Shown here piece by piece: positions 4,781 to 25,151 of a stretch of 32,000 nucleotides of DNA; the first letter of the stretch is position 1; every line of letters starts with the position of its first letter. Source of the stretch: Candidatus Paracaedimonas acanthamoebae. Lineage in GTDB: Bacteria; Pseudomonadota; Alphaproteobacteria; Caedimonadales; Caedimonadaceae. The stretch is from positions 630,001 through 662,000 of the forward strand of contig CP008936.1 of NCBI GenBank assembly GCA_000743035.1. Reading direction: 5' to 3'. Under the pieces are notes generated by a model. That model ran no database searches, was not told the DNA's origin, and saw only the letters and a list, made by a program, of their open reading frames with translations. The position numbers and the translations under genes were made by a program.

Positions 4781-5251
4781 TTAGGTTAGATTTTGTTCTT
4801 CTGCTAAATCTAGATTGCTAATAAAGTTTTTAAAATCACCCGGGACATCGAAATCTTGATAAACTGAAGCAAAACGAACATAGGCAACTTTATCAAGTTC
4901 ATAAAGAGATTGCATCACAATTTCACCAATTTTAGTTGAGGGAATTTCAGTCTCACCACAAGATTCAAGTTGCCTAACAATACTGCTAATGACGCGTTCT
5001 CGTCGTTCTGCATCAATAGGGCGTTTGTGAAGCGCTAATTCCATCGAATGGCAAAGTTTCTCACGGTCAAAAGGTTCAAGCTCACCATTTTTTTTGATAA
5101 TTTTTAAAGGCAGAAGCTGAATGCGCTCAACGGTGGTGAAGCGGGCGCCACAATCTGTACAATGTCTGCGACGACGAATGCCTACGTTTTCTTCAATAGC
5201 ACGTGAGTCTTTGACGGCAGTATCAGGATGACCACAAAAGGGACAGCGCAT
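4781..5251 (-). CDS. nrdR: Transcriptional repressor NrdR
   Basis: 156 aa. It has the MRCPFCG...CTDCGARFTT zinc ribbon plus an ATP-cone. The stop/start junction with glyA is at 5251. Confidence 0.9.
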   Translation of the reverse strand: MRCPFCGHPDTAVKDSRAIEENVGIRRRRHCTDCGARFTTVERIQLLPLKIIKKNGELEPFDREKLCHSMELALHKRPIDAERRERVISSIVRQLESCGETEIPSTKIGEIVMQSLYELDKVAYVRFASVYQDFDVPGDFKNFISNLDLAEEQNLT

Positions 5252-6540: not shown

Positions 6541-6632
6541 AGACTAACAGAGAAAATATAAAGCTTCTAGAGTTTCTCTTCCTTTTTTAAGAAAATTTTC
6601 GTATACTATAATTGTTAGGATTTCCTAACTAT

Positions 6633-6960
6633 GGCGATAAACGCGCTACGGAATAGGTGGGACGGACCCGGGGGCGGTACCCGGCGCCTCCACCAAACCT
6701 GTGAAAGGCTTGAAGCGCACAGCTTTCATGGGGGCGAAATAGGATCGACGTACGCTCAAAGGTAGAGGCTTTCGCTCGACATGGTACCGTCGTAAATGGA
6801 CTAAAAATAGTAAATGGCAAATCAAAATTTGCTCTTAATGGTAATGTACCTCAAGCCATCAATAACAATGGTGTAGGGGCTGCAGTTGCACAAGCTGCTT
6901 AATTATCGTTAGCGGTTCGAGGGGCACCGGGCAACAGAAGCCCCTCACTTTAATTATCGA
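6633..6960 (+). ncRNA. ssrA: Two-piece (circularly permuted) tmRNA: acceptor piece ~6633-6695, intervening segment 6696-6729, coding piece 6730-~6960
   Basis: The T-arm is ccggg/GGCGGTA/cccgg (6668-6684). The 3' acceptor strand CGCCTCC, discriminator A and encoded CCA end at 6695. The downstream 5' strand GGGGGCG (6730-6736) pairs with it to give a 7-bp stem with a G3:U wobble, followed by GAAATAGGATCGACG. An AAAAATAGT element precedes a tag frame that ends ..AAVAQAA-TAA (stop 6900-6902). Outer boundaries are approximate. Confidence 0.8.
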
Positions 6961-7081
6961 CCGATTTTATTTTTTAAGTTCTTGAATATAAAATTTGCTT
7001 ACGTCATTTTAAAAATAATAGCGCTTTTTTGAGCGGCATTAATTTTTTTGAAATGGTTTCAAGATAAGATGGTGATATAGC

Positions 7082-9549: not shown

Positions 9550-9653
9550 GAAAAGTATCGTAAGCCGAATATAGGTTTAAAAATTAGTTTTTACTTGGTG
9601 CTTAAGTGTGTTAAAGAAGCACGAGCTTATAAATTTAAATAGATGGATTGAAA

Positions 9654-10196
9654 ATGTTTGCAGTCATTAAGACAGGTGGAAAGCAATATAAAGTCTCAAA
9701 TGGAGACGTCGTTAAAGTTGAGCGTTTGGAAGGTGAGGCAGGAGCAACTCTTCATTTAAGCGATATTTTAATGCTTGGTGAGGAAAACAAGATGACTGTC
9801 GGTGCGCCCGCCGTGCAAGATGCAGCAGTTCGCGCAACCATTTTAGAACAAGCGCGTGGCGATAAGATAATTGTTTTTAAAAAGCGCCGTCGCCAAGGAT
9901 ATCGTCGCAAAGCTGGTCATCGTCAAGATTTAACAGTGCTACGTATTGAAGAAGTAATTGCTTCTGGTGCAAGTACACTACCTGAGTATACTGCCCCTAA
10001 AAAAGCTGCTGTAAAGCAAGGTGATGAAAAAGCAACAAAAGGTGCTGTAACACTAAAGGCGGCTAAAGAAGAAAAAGTAGCGCCTGTTAAGAAACAAGCT
10101 GAAGCGAAAGACGCAACAAAAGCAACTGCAAAAGAAAAACACGCAGGTGAAGAGAAAGCTAAAAAAGCCCCTGCTAAAAAAGAGACAAAGAAGTAG
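9654..10196 (+). CDS. rplU: 50S ribosomal protein L21 with a long Lys/Ala/Glu-rich C-terminal tail
   Basis: It has the canonical [14 protein letters not shown] start at ATG 9654, and the core ends around residue 100. About 75 further residues follow ([15 protein letters not shown]...[10 protein letters not shown]). Confidence 0.9.
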
Positions 10197-12964: not shown

Positions 12965-13331
12965 CTCGAAGGTCGGATGATCGCTTCTAATAAATTTAGA
13001 GGAGGAAAGTCCGGGCTCCACGGAAAGAGGATGCTGGATAACGTCCAGCGAGGGTAACCTTAGGGAAAGTGCCACAGAAAATATACCGCCAGCTTTTGTC
13101 TGGTAAGGGTGAAATGGTGCGGTAAGAGCGCACCGCACCTCTGGTAACAGAGGTGGCAGGGTAAACCCCATCCGGAGCAAGACCAAATAGGGACGATAGT
13201 TAGGGAAACCTAAAGGCGACTTTCCGCGTTATCGTCCGGGTAGGTCGCGTGAAGCTTTTGGTAACAAAAGCTCCAGATGAATGATCATCCCTGGTCATAC
13301 CAGGACAGAACCCGGCTTATAGACCTTCGAG
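12965..13331 (+). ncRNA. rnpB: RNase P RNA, bacterial type A
   Basis: The conserved GAGGAAAGTCCGGGCTCCA, GGGTAAACCCCA and ACAGAACCCGGCTTA blocks are present. P1 pairs ctcgaaggtc (12965-12974) with gaccttcgag (13322-13331). Confidence 0.9.
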
Positions 13332-13383
13332 CTTATATTTTGTTTGTAGCCCAAGATACAGCGCAGGCTTAACCTATAACCTC

Positions 13384-19668: not shown

Positions 19669-20157
19669 TTAAAAAACGAGATGGCTTCTAAGCATCCAGG
19701 ACGCTTTTTCATGTTCTCTAAGGCGACCAACAAGAAAATCGATGGTTCCTTCGTCAGGGATAAAGTCCACCAGATCTTTATCATTATTTAAATTGAGATC
19801 TTGAAGAACTTGACGAAGCTGTTCTATAAGTTTTTCATTATCATTTAGAAGGGCTGTAATCATCACTTCGGCTGTTTTCATATCATCATTTTCGGCTAAA
19901 GTAGCAAGCTTTAAAAACTCATGAAATGTCGCAGGAGCTCTTTCTCCCAACATTCGAATTCGCTCAGCAATCTCATCTATAGCGTCCGAGAGGATCTCAT
20001 ATTGATTTCCAAAAAGCTCATGGAGCATAGAAAAATTAGAGCCCGTAACATTCCAATGACAATTCTGAGTTTTAAGAGCAAGTAAATAAGTGTTTGCAAG
20101 CAATGTTTTTAGGTGCTCTACAGATTTTAAGCAAATTAAGCTATTCAATGTAACCAT
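19669..20157 (-). CDS. dps: Dps-family DNA-binding ferritin-like protein
   Basis: It has KTQNCHWNVTGSNFSMLHELF...DEIAERIRMLG ferroxidase-centre motifs. I prefer ATG 20155-20157, which has AAGGAG 6 nt upstream, over the track start at 20163. Confidence 0.85.
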   Translation of the reverse strand: MVTLNSLICLKSVEHLKTLLANTYLLALKTQNCHWNVTGSNFSMLHELFGNQYEILSDAIDEIAERIRMLGERAPATFHEFLKLATLAENDDMKTAEVMITALLNDNEKLIEQLRQVLQDLNLNNDKDLVDFIPDEGTIDFLVGRLREHEKASWMLRSHLVF

Positions 20158-20181
20158 CCCCATCTCCTTTAAATCAATAAT

Positions 20182-20199: not shown

Positions 20200-20324
20200 T
20201 ATTTATGAATGGTAAAAAGCAGGTAGGATTAAAAAGACTTTTTATAAAAAATGGCCAAAGATCGTAGGAAAATATCATTAATATCATATAGTTAATGTAT
20301 TTATATTTTAATATACTAATATTA

Positions 20325-22898
20325 TTAATGATCAGATGTCAAAGGAATTTCTGTTTCTGTCTCTTTAGCCTTTACTTTATCATGTGATAAATTTACTGGG
20401 TGCTTATTATTACCAAGTGTTGATAGTGTTTCATGAAGTAGATCAACATGTTTATGATATAAGATATCCTGTTGTGAAGGAAATAATGGTGACTTTAAAC
20501 CATATGTAGAAGGAAATTTAGTACTAACTTGTCTAGTCCTTGAAAAGTCATCTAGAACATCACTGATCTCTCGAGTTTTCTTTCCTTTTGATTTAGATTG
20601 GCCATGAGAAGTAAGTTTGAATGTTGGAGGTGAATCTTCTAAATCAAAGGCAGGTTCTAAGCTTATGCTAGTTGCAACGTAAGCGGTGCTTACATCATCT
20701 TGAGCCAGTGTAGGAGTAGCAGCTGAACCATTTATAGCTTGTTTTCTATAGTAGTCAAAGTCTGTATCTGCGATACTTTTTTGCAGCTCAGAAGGTTTTG
20801 GAGTCCGTCTTCTCTTTAAAGGCGGTTGGTTAGGAGAAGTTGAAGCTTGGTTAGAACTTGAGGAGGCGGCCAGCCTTTCTTCAGCTATAGACTCATCTAC
20901 ACTAGAGGCAGTTTCTGATGCATCAGAGTCAGGTTCTGAGCTTATGCTAGCTGCAACGTAAGTGGTGCTCATATTATCTTGAGCTAATGGAAAAGCAACA
21001 GCTGAACCACTGCTAGAGCTTACCCCAGCTTGTCTTTCATAATAAGCACGCTGAGAAGCTTCGAGGCTTGTTTGAAATTTCCGAGGTATTGGAGTTCGTC
21101 GTCTTTTTAAAAGTGGTCGACTAAGAGAAGTTGGGGCTGAAGTTTGGTGAGGGCTTAAGGAGGTTGCCAGTCTCTCTTCAATTTCAGCACAAGAGATAGA
21201 ACCTTTTTCCAATGGAGAGGTAGAGCGTAAGTGTCTCTCCATATAGATGAGAAAGGGGTCCAATGTTGATTTCATAGAATCTTTAGAATAAGTCCATCTA
21301 TCATCTAAAGTTGGGTTATAACCTCGAACCAATGTGGGGGGCACTAAAGAACTGCTTATAGAAGTTATCCCAGCTTGTCTCAAAAGGGAGTCATATGTTG
21401 TTTGTATATGACCTTTAGACTCAACCCATCCATCTAAAGGTGGGGCGCTAGAAGAAGTTGTTGTAGATGTTGGGTGATGCTTTGAGCTTTTTCCAGCTTC
21501 AGCAAGAGAAGAATTTGCATCGCTACTTTGATCTGCCATGGAAGAAGGAACAGCAGCTTGTATTACAGATACTGCAGAGAACGGTGTTGCTGCCATAGTA
21601 CTATGAGTGCTTGAGCTGGTTGCTGGTGCAGGAGTTAGAGTACTTGTGCTACTGTTCACAGGCACAGAAGGAAGAGCAGGTGTTGGTATGGTTAGGGCTC
21701 CACTATTAAGTGGTGACGTTGACTGAGTATTGCTAGCAAGTGGATTGGCTACCGTTACTAAAACCTGGGCATTTGTGCTACTGCCTCCAACTATAGGAGA
21801 AGGAATAGTTACAGGTAAAGTTGCAGTTGCTACGTATCCTGGAATATTGCTAGCTATCTGTATTGGAGAAGTACTTGTCCTACTGCTCACAGGTGTAGAA
21901 GAAAGAACAGGTGTTGGTACCATAGGTACAAGATTAAGGAGTGTTGCTGCCATAGTACTATGAGTGCTTGAGGTGGTTAGTGTCACCGGAATTGGAGTGC
22001 TTGCACTGCTGCTTGCAGGTAGAGAAGGAAGGACAGGAGTTGATGAGATTGGTGCGCTACTATTGAGTGATAATGTTGCTTGAATATTGTTGGTGCTTGA
22101 GATGGTTGCCATAGCAACCGGCGCGCTTACGACTCTGTCCTCTGGTATAGAAAGAAGAGCTAGCTCTGGCACAACTGGTGCTATAGTAAGGGCTGGGGTT
22201 TCCTCACTATTTTTAGCGATTGAGCCGGGTATGATAACAGGAAACGGCGTATACGTCCTTTCTTGGCGAGGCATAGAAGAAAAAGCAAGCTTGTTTTGCG
22301 AAATCTGAGGACTAAAAGTTTTTTCTTTATCTGAGCATACATTTTCTAAATCCAAAGCCCTCTTTTTTTCTAGAGAGAATGCTTCTTCAGTCTTGTTTAC
22401 AGCATTAAAAAAGAATGGATTATCAAGGGAAAAAAGGATGTTGTCATCTAAAGACAAAAAAGAGGGTGTAAAATCAGTATGTTCTTCCATATTTTTTGTT
22501 GTGAGTTCTTTCTCAAGTTTAAAAGGAGGTTGAAAGTTTAAGTAGCTGATAATTCTTCTTTTTATTTTAAAAAATGCAATCTTTTTAAGGGGATTAAAAA
22601 CAATATTTCTACGTAAAAGTCGAAAGTGAGAGTCCTTGAGCCATTTAAATTGAGAAGTAAAGCCGAAATTTATCTTATGAGGCCTGAATTTATAAGACTG
22701 AGGTAAAAATAGAGAAGTATTTTGATAAAAAAAATGGCGTTTAGTTCCTTTTAAATTAATCGTTTCTCTTCTCGTAATTAAAAAAGAAATAGGTTTTTCT
22801 TGAGGTAGAAGATTGAACGCGGATAGTGTCGAAGAAGTTTGGTCAGGGGTATTTAACCCTAAAACAGCGATAAGAGAAAGCAACAACTTTGTTAGCAC
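20325..22898 (-). CDS. Orphan 857-aa Ser/Thr/Pro-rich repeat protein with a hydrophobic N-terminus
   Basis: This is a long uninterrupted ORF in a ~35-40% GC genome. It has a GTG start with AGAGG 9 nt upstream. The N-terminus MLTKLLLSLIAVLGL resembles a signal peptide. The layout is a basic Phe-rich N-domain (aa ~40-230), an STPAV low-complexity core (aa ~240-490) and a duplicated C-terminal module. I recognise no family. Confidence 0.7.
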   Translation of the reverse strand: MLTKLLLSLIAVLGLNTPDQTSSTLSAFNLLPQEKPISFLITRRETINLKGTKRHFFYQNTSLFLPQSYKFRPHKINFGFTSQFKWLKDSHFRLLRRNIVFNPLKKIAFFKIKRRIISYLNFQPPFKLEKELTTKNMEEHTDFTPSFLSLDDNILFSLDNPFFFNAVNKTEEAFSLEKKRALDLENVCSDKEKTFSPQISQNKLAFSSMPRQERTYTPFPVIIPGSIAKNSEETPALTIAPVVPELALLSIPEDRVVSAPVAMATISSTNNIQATLSLNSSAPISSTPVLPSLPASSSASTPIPVTLTTSSTHSTMAATLLNLVPMVPTPVLSSTPVSSRTSTSPIQIASNIPGYVATATLPVTIPSPIVGGSSTNAQVLVTVANPLASNTQSTSPLNSGALTIPTPALPSVPVNSSTSTLTPAPATSSSTHSTMAATPFSAVSVIQAAVPSSMADQSSDANSSLAEAGKSSKHHPTSTTTSSSAPPLDGWVESKGHIQTTYDSLLRQAGITSISSSLVPPTLVRGYNPTLDDRWTYSKDSMKSTLDPFLIYMERHLRSTSPLEKGSISCAEIEERLATSLSPHQTSAPTSLSRPLLKRRRTPIPRKFQTSLEASQRAYYERQAGVSSSSGSAVAFPLAQDNMSTTYVAASISSEPDSDASETASSVDESIAEERLAASSSSNQASTSPNQPPLKRRRTPKPSELQKSIADTDFDYYRKQAINGSAATPTLAQDDVSTAYVATSISLEPAFDLEDSPPTFKLTSHGQSKSKGKKTREISDVLDDFSRTRQVSTKFPSTYGLKSPLFPSQQDILYHKHVDLLHETLSTLGNNKHPVNLSHDKVKAKETETEIPLTSDH
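20619..21188 (-). repeat. Tandem duplication inside the orphan gene (units aa ~571-668 and ~670-760, offset 93-97 codons)
   Basis: IEERLATSLS..LLKRRRTPIPRKFQTS..YYERQAG..LAQDNMSTTYVAASISSEPD aligns with IAEERLAASSS..PLKRRRTPKPSELQKS..YYRKQAI..LAQDDVSTAYVATSISLEPA. At DNA level, a ~57-nt near-identical stretch starts at 20651 and again at 20930. Confidence 0.8.
21549..22070 (-). repeat. Duplication inside the STP-rich core of the orphan gene (offset 119 codons)
   Basis: The exact 32-nt repeat gtgttgctgccatagtactatgagtgcttgag occurs at 21584-21615 and 21941-21972. It encodes SSTHSTMAAT in both units. The flanking NSSAPISSTPVLPSLP and NSGALTIPTPALPSVP segments also align. Confidence 0.85.
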
Positions 22899-22976
22899 CT
22901 TATCGTACCTCTAATGAATGGCTTACCTAAATGAACTATTTTTTCGTAGATGAAAATCGCCTAAAAAGCAAGAAAA

Positions 22977-22997
22977 TTATTAATATTCTATTAATAA
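22977..22997. promoter_or_regulatory. Perfect 9-bp palindrome TTATTAATA-ttc-TATTAATAA ~80-100 nt upstream of the orphan gene start
   Basis: Read directly from the sequence. It is entirely A/T in an AT-rich spacer, so significance is weak. Confidence 0.15.
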
Positions 22998-23150
22998 ATA
23001 GTATCGTTTTCAATGAATTATTACTATAGATTTTTGTCTATTAAAGGTTGTAGTCGTATTGTTTTTTGCCTATTATCTTGCCTTTTAAAGGACTTTTTTA
23101 AAGAATCTTCGTTGAATTTCAAATTTATAAAATGTTGAAAATGAATAGAT

Positions 23151-23185
23151 AAAAAGAGCAAGAAAATTGTTTTCTTGCTCTTTTT
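23151..23185 (-). terminator. Rho-independent (bidirectional-looking) terminator after the peroxiredoxin gene
   Basis: AAAAAGAGCAAGAAAA-ttg-TTTTCTTGCTCTTTTT forms a 12-bp perfect stem flanked by A- and T-runs. It lies 13 nt downstream of the stop at 23198. Confidence 0.65.
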
Positions 23186-23197
23186 ATAAGCTTGTCT

Positions 23198-23734
23198 TTA
23201 AGCTACCTTTACGTGGTCTTGACCTTTTTGCCAGTTGCAGCCACAAAGCCCCTCGGATTGTAAACCATCAAGAATACGGAGCGTTTCTTCAACGTTGCGA
23301 CCAACTGAAAGATCATTAATCGACACGTGACGAATAATGCCATCTGGGTCAACTAAATATGTCGCGCGCAAACAAACACCTTCTTGTTTATGAAGAATCC
23401 CTAAAGCATGCGAAAGTTCTTTCCGAATATCAGAAAGCCATGCAAAAGGACTATTGTTAAGGCCTTCATGATGTTTACGCCAGGCAACATGAACAAAGTC
23501 AGAATCTGTGCTGCATCCATAAATTTCACAGTTTCTTTCTTTGAATTGCGTATAGAGATCACCATATCCCATAATTTCTGTAGGGCAGATGAAGGTAAAG
23601 TCTTTTGGCCAAAAGAAGAAAAGCTTCCACTTCCCGTTATCGCTTTGATCTGTGACGAGAGGGAAGTCACCAATCTCAGAAGACCTAACAGCTTTTAGCG
23701 AAAAAGCAGGGAATTTATCACCAACAGTAAGCAT
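23198..23734 (-). CDS. 2-Cys peroxiredoxin (AhpC/Prx1 subfamily)
   Basis: MLTVGDKFPAF..., the FTFICPTE peroxidatic Cys motif and a C-terminal GLCGCNWQKG are present. I prefer the internal ATG (residue 51 of the track ORF), which has AAGGAG upstream. The longer track ORF overlaps the upstream gene. Confidence 0.9.
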   Translation of the reverse strand: MLTVGDKFPAFSLKAVRSSEIGDFPLVTDQSDNGKWKLFFFWPKDFTFICPTEIMGYGDLYTQFKERNCEIYGCSTDSDFVHVAWRKHHEGLNNSPFAWLSDIRKELSHALGILHKQEGVCLRATYLVDPDGIIRHVSINDLSVGRNVEETLRILDGLQSEGLCGCNWQKGQDHVKVA

Positions 23735-23753
23735 TTTAACGCTCCTTTCGTTT

Positions 23754-25151
23754 TTAGTTTCCAGTTTGTAAACGTTCAATAAGTTGTTTAACCGTAGGTA
23801 TAAAGCCATCGGCATAAAATGGATCAGAAGCAAAGCGGTAGGCATTGTGCCCAGCAAACATAAGCTGCTGGTTAATATCGCCACCGTGTGAAATTTCTTG
23901 GAGCGTCTTTTGAATGCAGAATGAGCGAGGATCTGCCTTTCGGCCCGTTGTATAGGGATCAGTTTGTTGCCAATTACTAAAGAGACAAGCGCTTAAACAA
24001 CCCATACAATTAATTTGATCAGTCAGAATTTGGTTAGCATCTTCAGGCGTTACAAAGATAAGCGTACTATCAGGAGTCCTTAAACCTTCGGTAAAGCCTT
24101 GTGCAACCCATTGTTCAACATGCGTAAGATCATGTGCCGTCAGGTAAACAAGCCTTTTCCGTGCACCAACCTCATAAGGGCGTTCATGATCACCAACAGG
24201 GGCAGTTGTATAAGCAACCTGGCGTTGTGAACGTGCATGAAGTTCATTTAAGAAGTCGTTTTTAACCGCAGAAGAATAAAAACCGGTTGGGCTAAAGCGA
24301 TTTAAGAAAACATCGCCTTGCTTTAAGGTCAAAAGCTTCTGTTTCCATTCCGATGAAATTGGACTTTCTTGGGTAAGAAGGGGCCTTGTTCCAAATTGAA
24401 AGGCAATAGGACCAAGGTCAGGATTATCAATCCAATCTTCCCATTCCCTTAAGAACCATACGCCGCCGGCCATAATAATGGGTATATTATTGAGGCCAAA
24501 TTCAACCATTTGTTTCCTTAAAGCAAGAACACGCTCATAAGGAGGTTGGGGATGGGTTGGGTCTTCACTATTACTTAAACCGTTATGCCCTCCAGCAAGC
24601 CAAGGATCTTCGTAAACAACCGCTCCGAGTTTGTCGGGGAATTTGTGATAAGCTCTTTTCCATAAAGCATTAAAGGCACGTGCAGAGGAGACAATTGGAT
24701 AATAAAATATATTATAACGTGCTGAAATTTCAGCGACTTTATAAGGCATCCCAGCACCACATGTCACGCCATGAATAAGGCCTTGGGTGCCTTCAAGAAC
24801 GCCATGCAAGATTTCTTCACAAGCAGCCATCTCCCATAAGACATTCATATGAAGACGGCCTTGTCCATTTCGCATCTCATGCGCAATCTTTGCCTGTGCA
24901 ATGCCACCTTTTATGGCGTAAGCAACAAGTTCATGATGTCGTTCGCGCCTTGTTTTCCCATGATAAACAACTGGGATCAAATCTCCATTTTCATCGTAGG
25001 CATCGGCATTAACACCTGAAAAAGTACCAACACCGCCTGCAGCAGCCCAGGCACCTGAACTTTCACCATTGGAAACAGAAATCCCTTTCCCTCCCTCAAT
25101 AAGAGGAAGAACTTCTTGACCAGACATAAGAATAGGATTAAGGGACTTCAC
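23754..25151 (-). CDS. Nitronate monooxygenase / 2-nitropropane dioxygenase-family FMN oxidoreductase (long form)
   Basis: 465 aa. LPLIEGGKGISVS, GVTCGAGMP and IIMAGGV are consistent with an NMO TIM barrel. The stop lies ~19 nt from the peroxiredoxin ATG, so the two are probably co-transcribed. Confidence 0.6.
   Translation of the reverse strand: MKSLNPILMSGQEVLPLIEGGKGISVSNGESSGAWAAAGGVGTFSGVNADAYDENGDLIPVVYHGKTRRERHHELVAYAIKGGIAQAKIAHEMRNGQGRLHMNVLWEMAACEEILHGVLEGTQGLIHGVTCGAGMPYKVAEISARYNIFYYPIVSSARAFNALWKRAYHKFPDKLGAVVYEDPWLAGGHNGLSNSEDPTHPQPPYERVLALRKQMVEFGLNNIPIIMAGGVWFLREWEDWIDNPDLGPIAFQFGTRPLLTQESPISSEWKQKLLTLKQGDVFLNRFSPTGFYSSAVKNDFLNELHARSQRQVAYTTAPVGDHERPYEVGARKRLVYLTAHDLTHVEQWVAQGFTEGLRTPDSTLIFVTPEDANQILTDQINCMGCLSACLFSNWQQTDPYTTGRKADPRSFCIQKTLQEISHGGDINQQLMFAGHNAYRFASDPFYADGFIPTVKQLIERLQTGN

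Follow-up and report, generated by a model that had tools for sequence, protein, structure and literature searches.

IM40_03420 of Candidatus Paracaedimonas acanthamoebae, a predicted disordered protein with repeated C-terminal modules and candidate for a host-facing role

What kind of protein is encoded between the genes for Dps and AhpC in Candidatus Paracaedimonas acanthamoebae, and where could it act? We analysed a window of 32,000 nucleotides (contig CP008936.1, positions 630,001 to 662,000; all coordinates below are those of the window) in which the gene IM40_03420 occupies 20325..22898 on the minus strand, coding for 857 aa plus stop from a GTG start. Its product (AIL12787.1) is identical to a hypothetical protein of this organism, a member of the Caedimonadaceae that lives as a cytoplasmic symbiont of Acanthamoeba and has a 1.7-Mb genome with 38% GC (PMC11909080). 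An initial annotation made from the DNA sequence had described a single open reading frame (ORF) between dps and a peroxiredoxin/NMO pair, all on one strand, in a "reduced alphaproteobacterium", and had suggested a secreted, nucleomodulin-like effector or a surface protein. The arrangement is as described, with dps at 19669..20163 on one side and ahpC and the NMO gene on the other, and the genome is that of a reduced alphaproteobacterial endosymbiont. The features reported below make the protein a reasonable candidate for a host-facing role in this endosymbiont.

The gene, its relatives and its divergence

The product of IM40_03420 had not been placed in any family by the initial annotation, and it matches no described family in the collections that we searched. 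No match was obtained in Pfam or NCBIfam at E ≤ 10, nor in PHROGs. A Pfam search with all six members of the family defined below also returned no family, giving only chance-level hits to DASH_Duo1 (E = 0.0065, two members) and GLD-3 KH (E = 0.059, one member), and profile searches of the PDB with N-terminal, C-terminal and module alignments produced chance matches only, among them adenovirus hexon (E = 0.29), mL125 (E = 0.23) and a Spire segment, "SRPPLKK" (E = 2.6).

The protein had been called an orphan, which is too strong: five syntenic orthologues are known, with lengths of 449 to 771 aa, from related symbiont genomes and metagenome-assembled genomes (MAGs). One was found by a full-length search (P0002, 771 aa, 34% identity), three were added by an exhaustive HMMER scan with an N-terminal profile (P0003, 609 aa; P0004, 449 aa; P0005, 541 aa), and the sixth family member, of 557 aa, comes straight from the sequence of the MAG "Caedibacter sp. 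37-49". The HMMER scan covered 1.84 billion representative proteins and revealed nothing credible beyond true family members, and neither the protein nor its module, used as query against JGI metagenomes and viral contigs, gave additional relatives. All six genes sit between ahpC and dps, in the shared order PNPase-NMO-ahpC-X-dps-nusB-gpmI, where X is the disordered-protein gene; the orthologous loci are designated L001, L002, L010, L011 and L013. At more remote Dps loci (L003-L009) this synteny is absent and no homologue is present. A phage or giant-virus origin was considered and rejected, given the lack of a PHROGs match and of relatives in viral contigs with either query. The lineage specificity that the initial annotation had proposed to check is therefore evident, the gene being confined to the ahpC-dps interval of a small clade with six members.

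Open frames of 449 to 857 codons are present in 6 of 6 lineages despite a synonymous divergence (dS) of about 0.5 to 2.6 in the flanking genes, and we therefore consider the gene real. For X itself dS reaches about 4, and in the closest pair, L002 and L013, it is 0.33 compared to 0.5-1.0 for neighbouring genes. Between lineages X shares 25-41% amino-acid identity, rising to 66% for the closest pair, while across the same loci AhpC retains 92-98%, NusB 76-92% and Dps 64-88% identity. The ratio of nonsynonymous to synonymous divergence (dN/dS) is 0.4-0.65 for X versus 0.09-0.2 for dps, 0.01-0.04 for ahpC and 0.05-0.13 for nusB. Between L002 and L013 this ratio is 0.78 over aa 1-390, which is nearly neutral, and 0.23 over the C-terminal 167 aa, which denotes purifying selection; the part carrying the modules described below is the most constrained portion of the protein. 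As a separate observation on the neighbouring gene, Dps (19669-20163) carries a 9-residue insertion in the NDKDLVDFIP region relative to its L001 orthologue.

The start codon was assigned by the same comparison. The NCBI record begins at a TTG four codons downstream of the GTG and yields 853 aa (22887-22898). The GTG at 22898 aligns with the GTG or ATG starts of all five orthologues (ATG in L002), and because this position is aligned in 6 of 6 members we prefer the 857-aa start. Together, these results indicate that the gene is genuine, vertically inherited and confined to a small clade of Paracaedimonas-like symbionts.

Leader, disordered tract and C-terminal modules

The hydrophobic N-terminus noticed in the initial annotation is present, conserved and similar to an export signal. 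It comprises aa 1-26 (22821..22898, minus strand), reading MLTK, then LLLSLIAVLGL, then a polar stretch up to LSA. The segment LLLSLIAVLGL has the highest 11-residue hydropathy of the protein (2.92), a value comparable to those at the N-termini of exported or membrane proteins elsewhere in the window (CtpA lipoprotein leader, 2.65; MFS, 2.55; TadF, 3.05); most cytoplasmic proteins of the window score under 1.8, and the highest among them reaches about 2.1. The consensus M-[LV]-x-K-LLL[SL]L[IF]xxL[GS][LF] is kept in all six members, and AlphaFold2 predicts a leader helix at aa 2-12 with a predicted local distance difference test score (pLDDT) of 80. Of the elements of a Sec-type signal, an n-region (K4) and an h-region (L5-L15) are present and conserved, and candidate cleavage sites at [VSA]-L-[GS] or L-S-A were picked by eye only; the leader looks like a signal peptide, putatively of the Sec type. 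A lipoprotein was rejected, since Cys does not occur within the first 40 residues of any member and the lipobox L-[AS]-[GA]-C is missing. The protein contains no segment of transmembrane length (best 19-residue hydropathy, 1.36) and no other hydrophobic segment.

At L001, the locus of the closest full-length relative, a 2-nt deletion lies in a T-run (L001:10055-10075, corresponding to window positions 22780-22790), the window reading ATTTCTTTTTTAATT and L001 reading ATT--TTTTTTAATT. The conserved leader of L001, MIAKLLFILITALGLN..., is out of frame with the 771-aa body, which stays open; the called protein begins at an overlapping ATG that is in frame with the body, and it is carried by three contigs. 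The deletion could be a fixed mutation, a case of phase variation by slippage, or a site of recoding. All six lineages preserve the protein sequence of the leader while showing synonymous changes, and this holds for the out-of-frame L001 copy too.

Downstream of the leader follows the basic, Phe-rich segment that had been reported before, which we place at aa 34-135 (22494..22799, minus strand). It has an isoelectric point (pI) of 11.15, contains 14% Phe and 14% Lys, shows a dN/dS of 0.39-0.46 and includes the invariant motif T46-x-N-L-K-x-x-K-R54; AlphaFold2 gives it a single low-confidence helix at aa 103-119. It is succeeded by an acidic, weakly conserved segment at aa 136-245 (22164..22493, minus strand; pI 4.65; dN/dS 0.58 to 0.92) and by a Ser/Thr/Pro/Ala/Val-rich tract at aa 246-485 (21444..22163, minus strand), which is composed of 22% S, 15% T, 12% A and 12% P, varies in length among orthologues, reaches a pLDDT of only about 30 and has a dN/dS of 0.92 in the closest pair. 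We could verify that this tract contains an exact 32-nt repeat, as claimed, with copies at 21584..21615, encoding part of SSTHSTMAAT, and at 21941..21972, 357 nt away. Both copies are nested in a 149-nt repeat (D2) of 76% identity; in shuffled controls an exact 14-mer repeat appeared in only 3 of 200 cases.

We ran AlphaFold2 with the family alignment on the full-length protein and, in a second run, on aa 480-857. The full-length model has a mean pLDDT of 38.5 and a predicted template modelling score (pTM) of 0.22, with 719 of 857 residues below 50, and confidence is reached only in the leader helix and in four isolated helices (aa 489-508, 605-623, 702-723 and 808-829). The same helices, unpacked, were obtained for aa 480-857 (pLDDT 50.8, pTM 0.18), and no beta strand was predicted in either run. 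These models agree with the earlier label "disordered": extensive disorder and no fold are predicted, and the protein is likely to be intrinsically disordered with a few short helices.

The duplicated C-terminal module of the initial annotation, with its two KRRR runs, was recovered, together with a further copy. Module 1 (aa 482-513; 21360..21455, minus strand; PPLDGWVESKGHIQTTYDSLLRQAGI) is of a W-type without the basic run and is detected by a small hidden Markov model (HMM) of the module with an independent E-value of 2e-14; it coincides with the helix at aa 489-508 (pLDDT up to 81) and occurs in four orthologues. Module 2 (aa 591-628; 21015..21128, minus strand; SLSRPLLKRRRTPIPRKFQTSLEASQRAYYERQAGV) carries KRRR at 21096-21107 and the helix at aa 605-623 (pLDDT up to 88), and module 3 (aa 688-725; 20724..20837, minus strand; SPNQPPLKRRRTPKPSELQKSIADTDFDYYRKQAIN) carries KRRR at 20805-20816 and the helix at aa 702-723. 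The consensus of the HMM is S-P-S-R-P-P-L-K-R-[RK]-x-T-P ... Q-x-S ... Y ... [RK]-Q-A-G, and in a second variant P-P-L-D-x-W ... T-Q-x-T-Y replaces the basic run.

Repeat number varies among the relatives, as the initial annotation had suggested it might, with 1 to 3 module copies in the six members: the HMM counts 3 here, 3 in L001, 2 in L010, 1 plus a degenerate basic remnant in L011, and 1 each in L002 and L013. At the DNA level the C-terminal repeat extends over 95 nt with 81% identity (20643-20737 and 20922-21016). The unit of intragenic duplication is longest here, at 279-291 nt, and shorter in L001 (222 nt) and L010 (171 nt); no intragenic duplication was seen in L002, L011 and L013. 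Because the unit lengths differ between lineages, module copy number has changed by lineage-specific duplication. The stretch LAQD..ST.YVA.SIS.EP, part of the unit here, is absent from all orthologues.

The KRRR runs had been likened to a nuclear localization signal (NLS), a resemblance of pattern. The monopartite pattern K-[KR]-x-[KR] is matched by both runs here and once in L001, but the run of four basic residues is only partly conserved: L001 has KRKP and KRRR, L002 and L013 have KRKV, L011 has RRTHKRR, and the L010 modules lack a basic run altogether; KRKP and KRKV fail the strict pattern. Among the other ORFs of the window (about 7,900 aa), runs of four Lys or Arg residues occur only twice, in ORFs 4781..5251 and 9648..10196, the latter matching ribosomal protein L21.

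The protein closes with a C-terminal tail at aa 760-857 (20328..20621, minus strand), in which two helices are predicted and the end, E-[IL]-P-x-x-x-D-H, is conserved in part. The ETETE stretch near this end had been compared to the E-block of secretion signals, a comparison that does not survive: the stretch occurs in this genome only, and the orthologues end in KKKNQELPSNTDH, NTEIELPIYCS, KRTKMSIEPE and NTLEESN. A Dot/Icm effector with an E-block was rejected on this ground, and the group is not known to have a Dot/Icm-type system.

Upstream region and neighbouring features

The start codon, ribosome-binding region and upstream block align across all six loci. Within this block, a putative promoter (22943..22971, minus strand) consists of TTGCTT (22966-22971), a 17-nt spacer and TACGAA (22943-22948); TTGCTT is invariant in the six loci and is followed 17 nt on by TAnnnA. 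The gene is separated from ahpC by a terminator-like element, a perfect 18-bp hairpin with a T-run (23149..23187, minus strand), which is conserved in L001 and L011. Because of this hairpin and the conserved upstream block, the disordered-protein gene probably has a promoter of its own. One arm of the hairpin (AAAGAGCAAGAAAA / TTTTCTTGCTCTTT, 23149-23187) recurs, 84-89% alike, at the -35-like block AATAATTTTCTTGCTTTTT (22963-22981).

The perfect 9-bp palindrome reported earlier at 22977-22997 was also found, as an inverted repeat with a 3-nt spacer, TTATTAATA GAA TATTAATAA. It occurs once in the window, against a chance expectation of 0.12 per shuffle (with ≤3 mismatches), and only its TTAAT cores are conserved, in 4 of 6 loci; a second promoter-like site, TTGAAA-17-TAGAAT, overlaps it. 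The palindrome was rejected as a shared operator, being present in a single copy and in none upstream of ahpC or dps. At the other end of the gene, a promoter-like sequence directed at dps (TTGACA-18-nt-TAGTAT, 10 of 12 matches, 20313-20342) spans the stop codon, and because no terminator-like site is found downstream of the disordered-protein gene, read-through into dps is possible. Rfam returned no RNA family inside or adjoining the ORF.

Several further features of the locus were recorded. The mechanically called ahpC ORF (23198-23884; 228 aa from a GTG) extends into the end of the NMO gene; AhpC in all orthologues has 178 aa and starts with MLT[VI]GDKF, for which the matching start here is the ATG at 23734. 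L002 and L013 contain, between ahpC and X, a small gene (L002:3755-4060 and L013:5450-5848; 101 or 132 aa) whose product has a signal-peptide-like leader and ends in ...GTKYKF; it is restricted to the L002/L013 sub-clade, with no trace in the window or in the other loci. Elsewhere in the window lie a permuted two-piece alphaproteobacterial tmRNA gene (6575-6993; tag peptide GKSKFALNGNVPQAINNNGVGAAVAQAA; ARAGORN, Rfam RF01849/RF04321), a class A RNase P RNA (12965-13335; Rfam, 332 bits) and two pseudopilin genes of the TadE/TadF type from a Tad pilus cluster (30821-31919), which are about 8 kb away and have no evident link to IM40_03420. The syntenic L001 contig encodes Tad, TadE and prepilin peptidase.

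Readings of the protein and comparison with known systems

From these sequence features, we propose tentatively that the product of IM40_03420 is an exported disordered protein that presents multivalent short modules at the host interface, a reading that is quite possible, if not yet probable. The leader would carry the protein out of the bacterial cytoplasm via Sec, and the disordered Ser/Thr/Pro spacer, the sequence of which would be free to drift, would keep the C-terminal modules at a distance from the N-terminal portion. Each module combines a basic patch between prolines (L-K-R-[RK]-x-T-P) with a single helix behind it that terminates in [RK]-Q-A-G; with 1 to 3 such copies, the protein would make multivalent contact with a partner, located at the symbiont envelope or in the surrounding amoeba cytosol. 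Several observations weigh against this proposal. The hydrophobic core of the leader is short (11 residues) and its cleavage region ambiguous; the leader may be dispensable in L001, because the 2-nt deletion leaves it out of frame while the body remains open; the module helices are not significantly amphipathic, their hydrophobic moments not exceeding those of shuffled sequences; and family searches and the genes of the window revealed no recognizable anchor, outer-membrane translocation domain or adjacent secretion system. Overall, the interpretation of the initial annotation is supported in part: its sequence features were found, and predicted disorder, a conserved leader and differing module numbers accord with it, whereas orphan status was too strong a term, ETETE is not conserved and KRRR is conserved only in part.

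The same leader, together with the failure to find an outer-membrane export module, would also suit a housekeeping spacer of the periplasm or envelope that makes no contact with the host, its aromatic-rich N-segment of pI 11 binding anionic envelope components and its tract spanning the periplasm in the manner of TonB, TolA or FtsN. The housekeeping neighbourhood, strict vertical inheritance and the gene's own conserved promoter-like block point in this direction as well; however, neither a transmembrane anchor nor a folded C-terminal domain is predicted, no envelope family was matched in Pfam or NCBIfam, and extreme divergence with module turnover is unusual in core envelope machinery, so that we regard such a spacer as rather unlikely, though the likeliest of the rivals. 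Retention in the bacterial cytoplasm, with an N-terminus that is no export signal and basic patches that bind nucleic acid or a bacterial partner, would be compatible with the L001 body staying open without an in-frame leader and with the finding of one of the two other four-residue basic runs of the window in ribosomal protein L21, the second being in ORF 4781..5251. Against this, the leader protein sequence is conserved with synonymous changes in 6 of 6 lineages and its hydropathy lies well above that of the cytoplasmic proteins of the window, and a cytoplasmic role appears distinctly improbable. That the ORF is decaying or non-functional and open by chance is suggested by a dN/dS near 0.9 over the N-terminal and central parts in the closest pair and by the L001 frameshift. 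Against it, six AT-rich lineages retain frames of 449-857 codons despite the synonymous divergence of their flanks, the C-terminal dN/dS is 0.23, and conservation extends to the start codon, the ribosome-binding region and the upstream block; this reading is the faintest of prospects.

The basic runs raise another explanation, in which the protein, released into the amoeba cytosol, engages importin-alpha through KRRR as a monopartite NLS and has its site of action in the host nucleus. Both KRRR runs fit the pattern within the most constrained region, a basic patch is kept in 5 of 6 orthologues, the symbiont lies free in the host cytoplasm (PMC11909080), and the same order offers a precedent in Holospora PRP1, a signal-peptide-bearing periplasmic protein that is released into the host nucleus (PMC9866348). 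Opposed to it are the incomplete conservation of the four-basic run, with KRKP or KRKV elsewhere and none in the L010 modules, the lack of any DNA- or chromatin-binding domain in Pfam searches, and the poor fit of a Sec-type leader with the one-step delivery by type IV or type VI secretion that is typical of nucleomodulins; type VI is the most conserved secretion system in this order (PMC11909080). A nucleomodulin is accordingly improbable in our estimate. A bolder version, which we consider a long shot, would make the protein a nucleomodulin of a new type that leaves by Sec instead of type III, IV or VI secretion, with an NLS-plus-helix module duplicated independently for import avidity and export switched on and off by slippage at the T-run behind the leader, as the L001 deletion hints.

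Comparison with known proteins puts the proposal of an exported, module-bearing disordered protein in context. PRP1 of Holospora obtusa, a 63-kDa periplasmic protein from the same order, is likewise a lineage-specific protein of a protist endosymbiont with a putative signal peptide; it is kept outside the bacterial cytoplasm, is released to the host, carries a D5_N domain and binds DNA (PMC9866348). In contrast to PRP1, the IM40_03420 family lacks D5_N (Pfam, 6 of 6 members), and it shows no detected relation to PRP1 in sequence. Relative to the SV40 large-T type of NLS (PKKKRKV), the motif P-x-L-K-R-R-R-T-P fits K-[KR]-x-[KR] and is flanked by proline, a pattern match only, the four-basic run not being conserved across the family.

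TonB/TolA-type spanners have a hydrophobic segment at the N-terminus and continue in a long, extended stretch rich in proline, and IM40_03420 resembles them in having such a segment and a long, extended, Pro-containing region. A spanner of this type was nevertheless rejected, with a best 19-residue hydropathy of 1.36, no folded C-terminus in the AlphaFold2 models and no family match. An autotransporter or outer-membrane beta-barrel was discarded as well, AlphaFold2 predicting no beta strands and Pfam giving no match. The idea of a WH2 or beta-thymosin motif came from a likeness to LKKT ... KQAG and from the 7-residue Spire match (E = 2.6); it was abandoned, with no Pfam match at E ≤ 10, an hhalign probability of 0.5% against beta-thymosins and a reversed order of the elements.

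To our knowledge, no effector of the Caedimonadaceae has been characterized experimentally, and molecular data on host interaction are scarce for the whole order, Holospora PRP1 being among the few. With its conserved position, very fast divergence, export-type leader and constrained modules that vary in copy number, IM40_03420 is a sensible first candidate for such an interaction; if it is purely a periplasmic spacer, it would be an ordinary lineage-specific envelope protein of little wider interest. The Ehrlichia tandem-repeat proteins TRP32, TRP47 and TRP120, like comparable disordered effectors from other obligate intracellular bacteria, are disordered and rich in Ser and Thr, evolve fast, contain repeats and are confined to their lineages, and some of them are nucleomodulins; the TRPs are acidic, lack a Sec leader and exit by type I secretion, whereas IM40_03420 has a leader, basic modules and only 1 to 3 non-tandem copies. 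Nothing points to a new kind of system, and the six known members form an uncharacterized family within a familiar class, exported disordered proteins with repeats that are specific to particular lineages of obligate intracellular bacteria.

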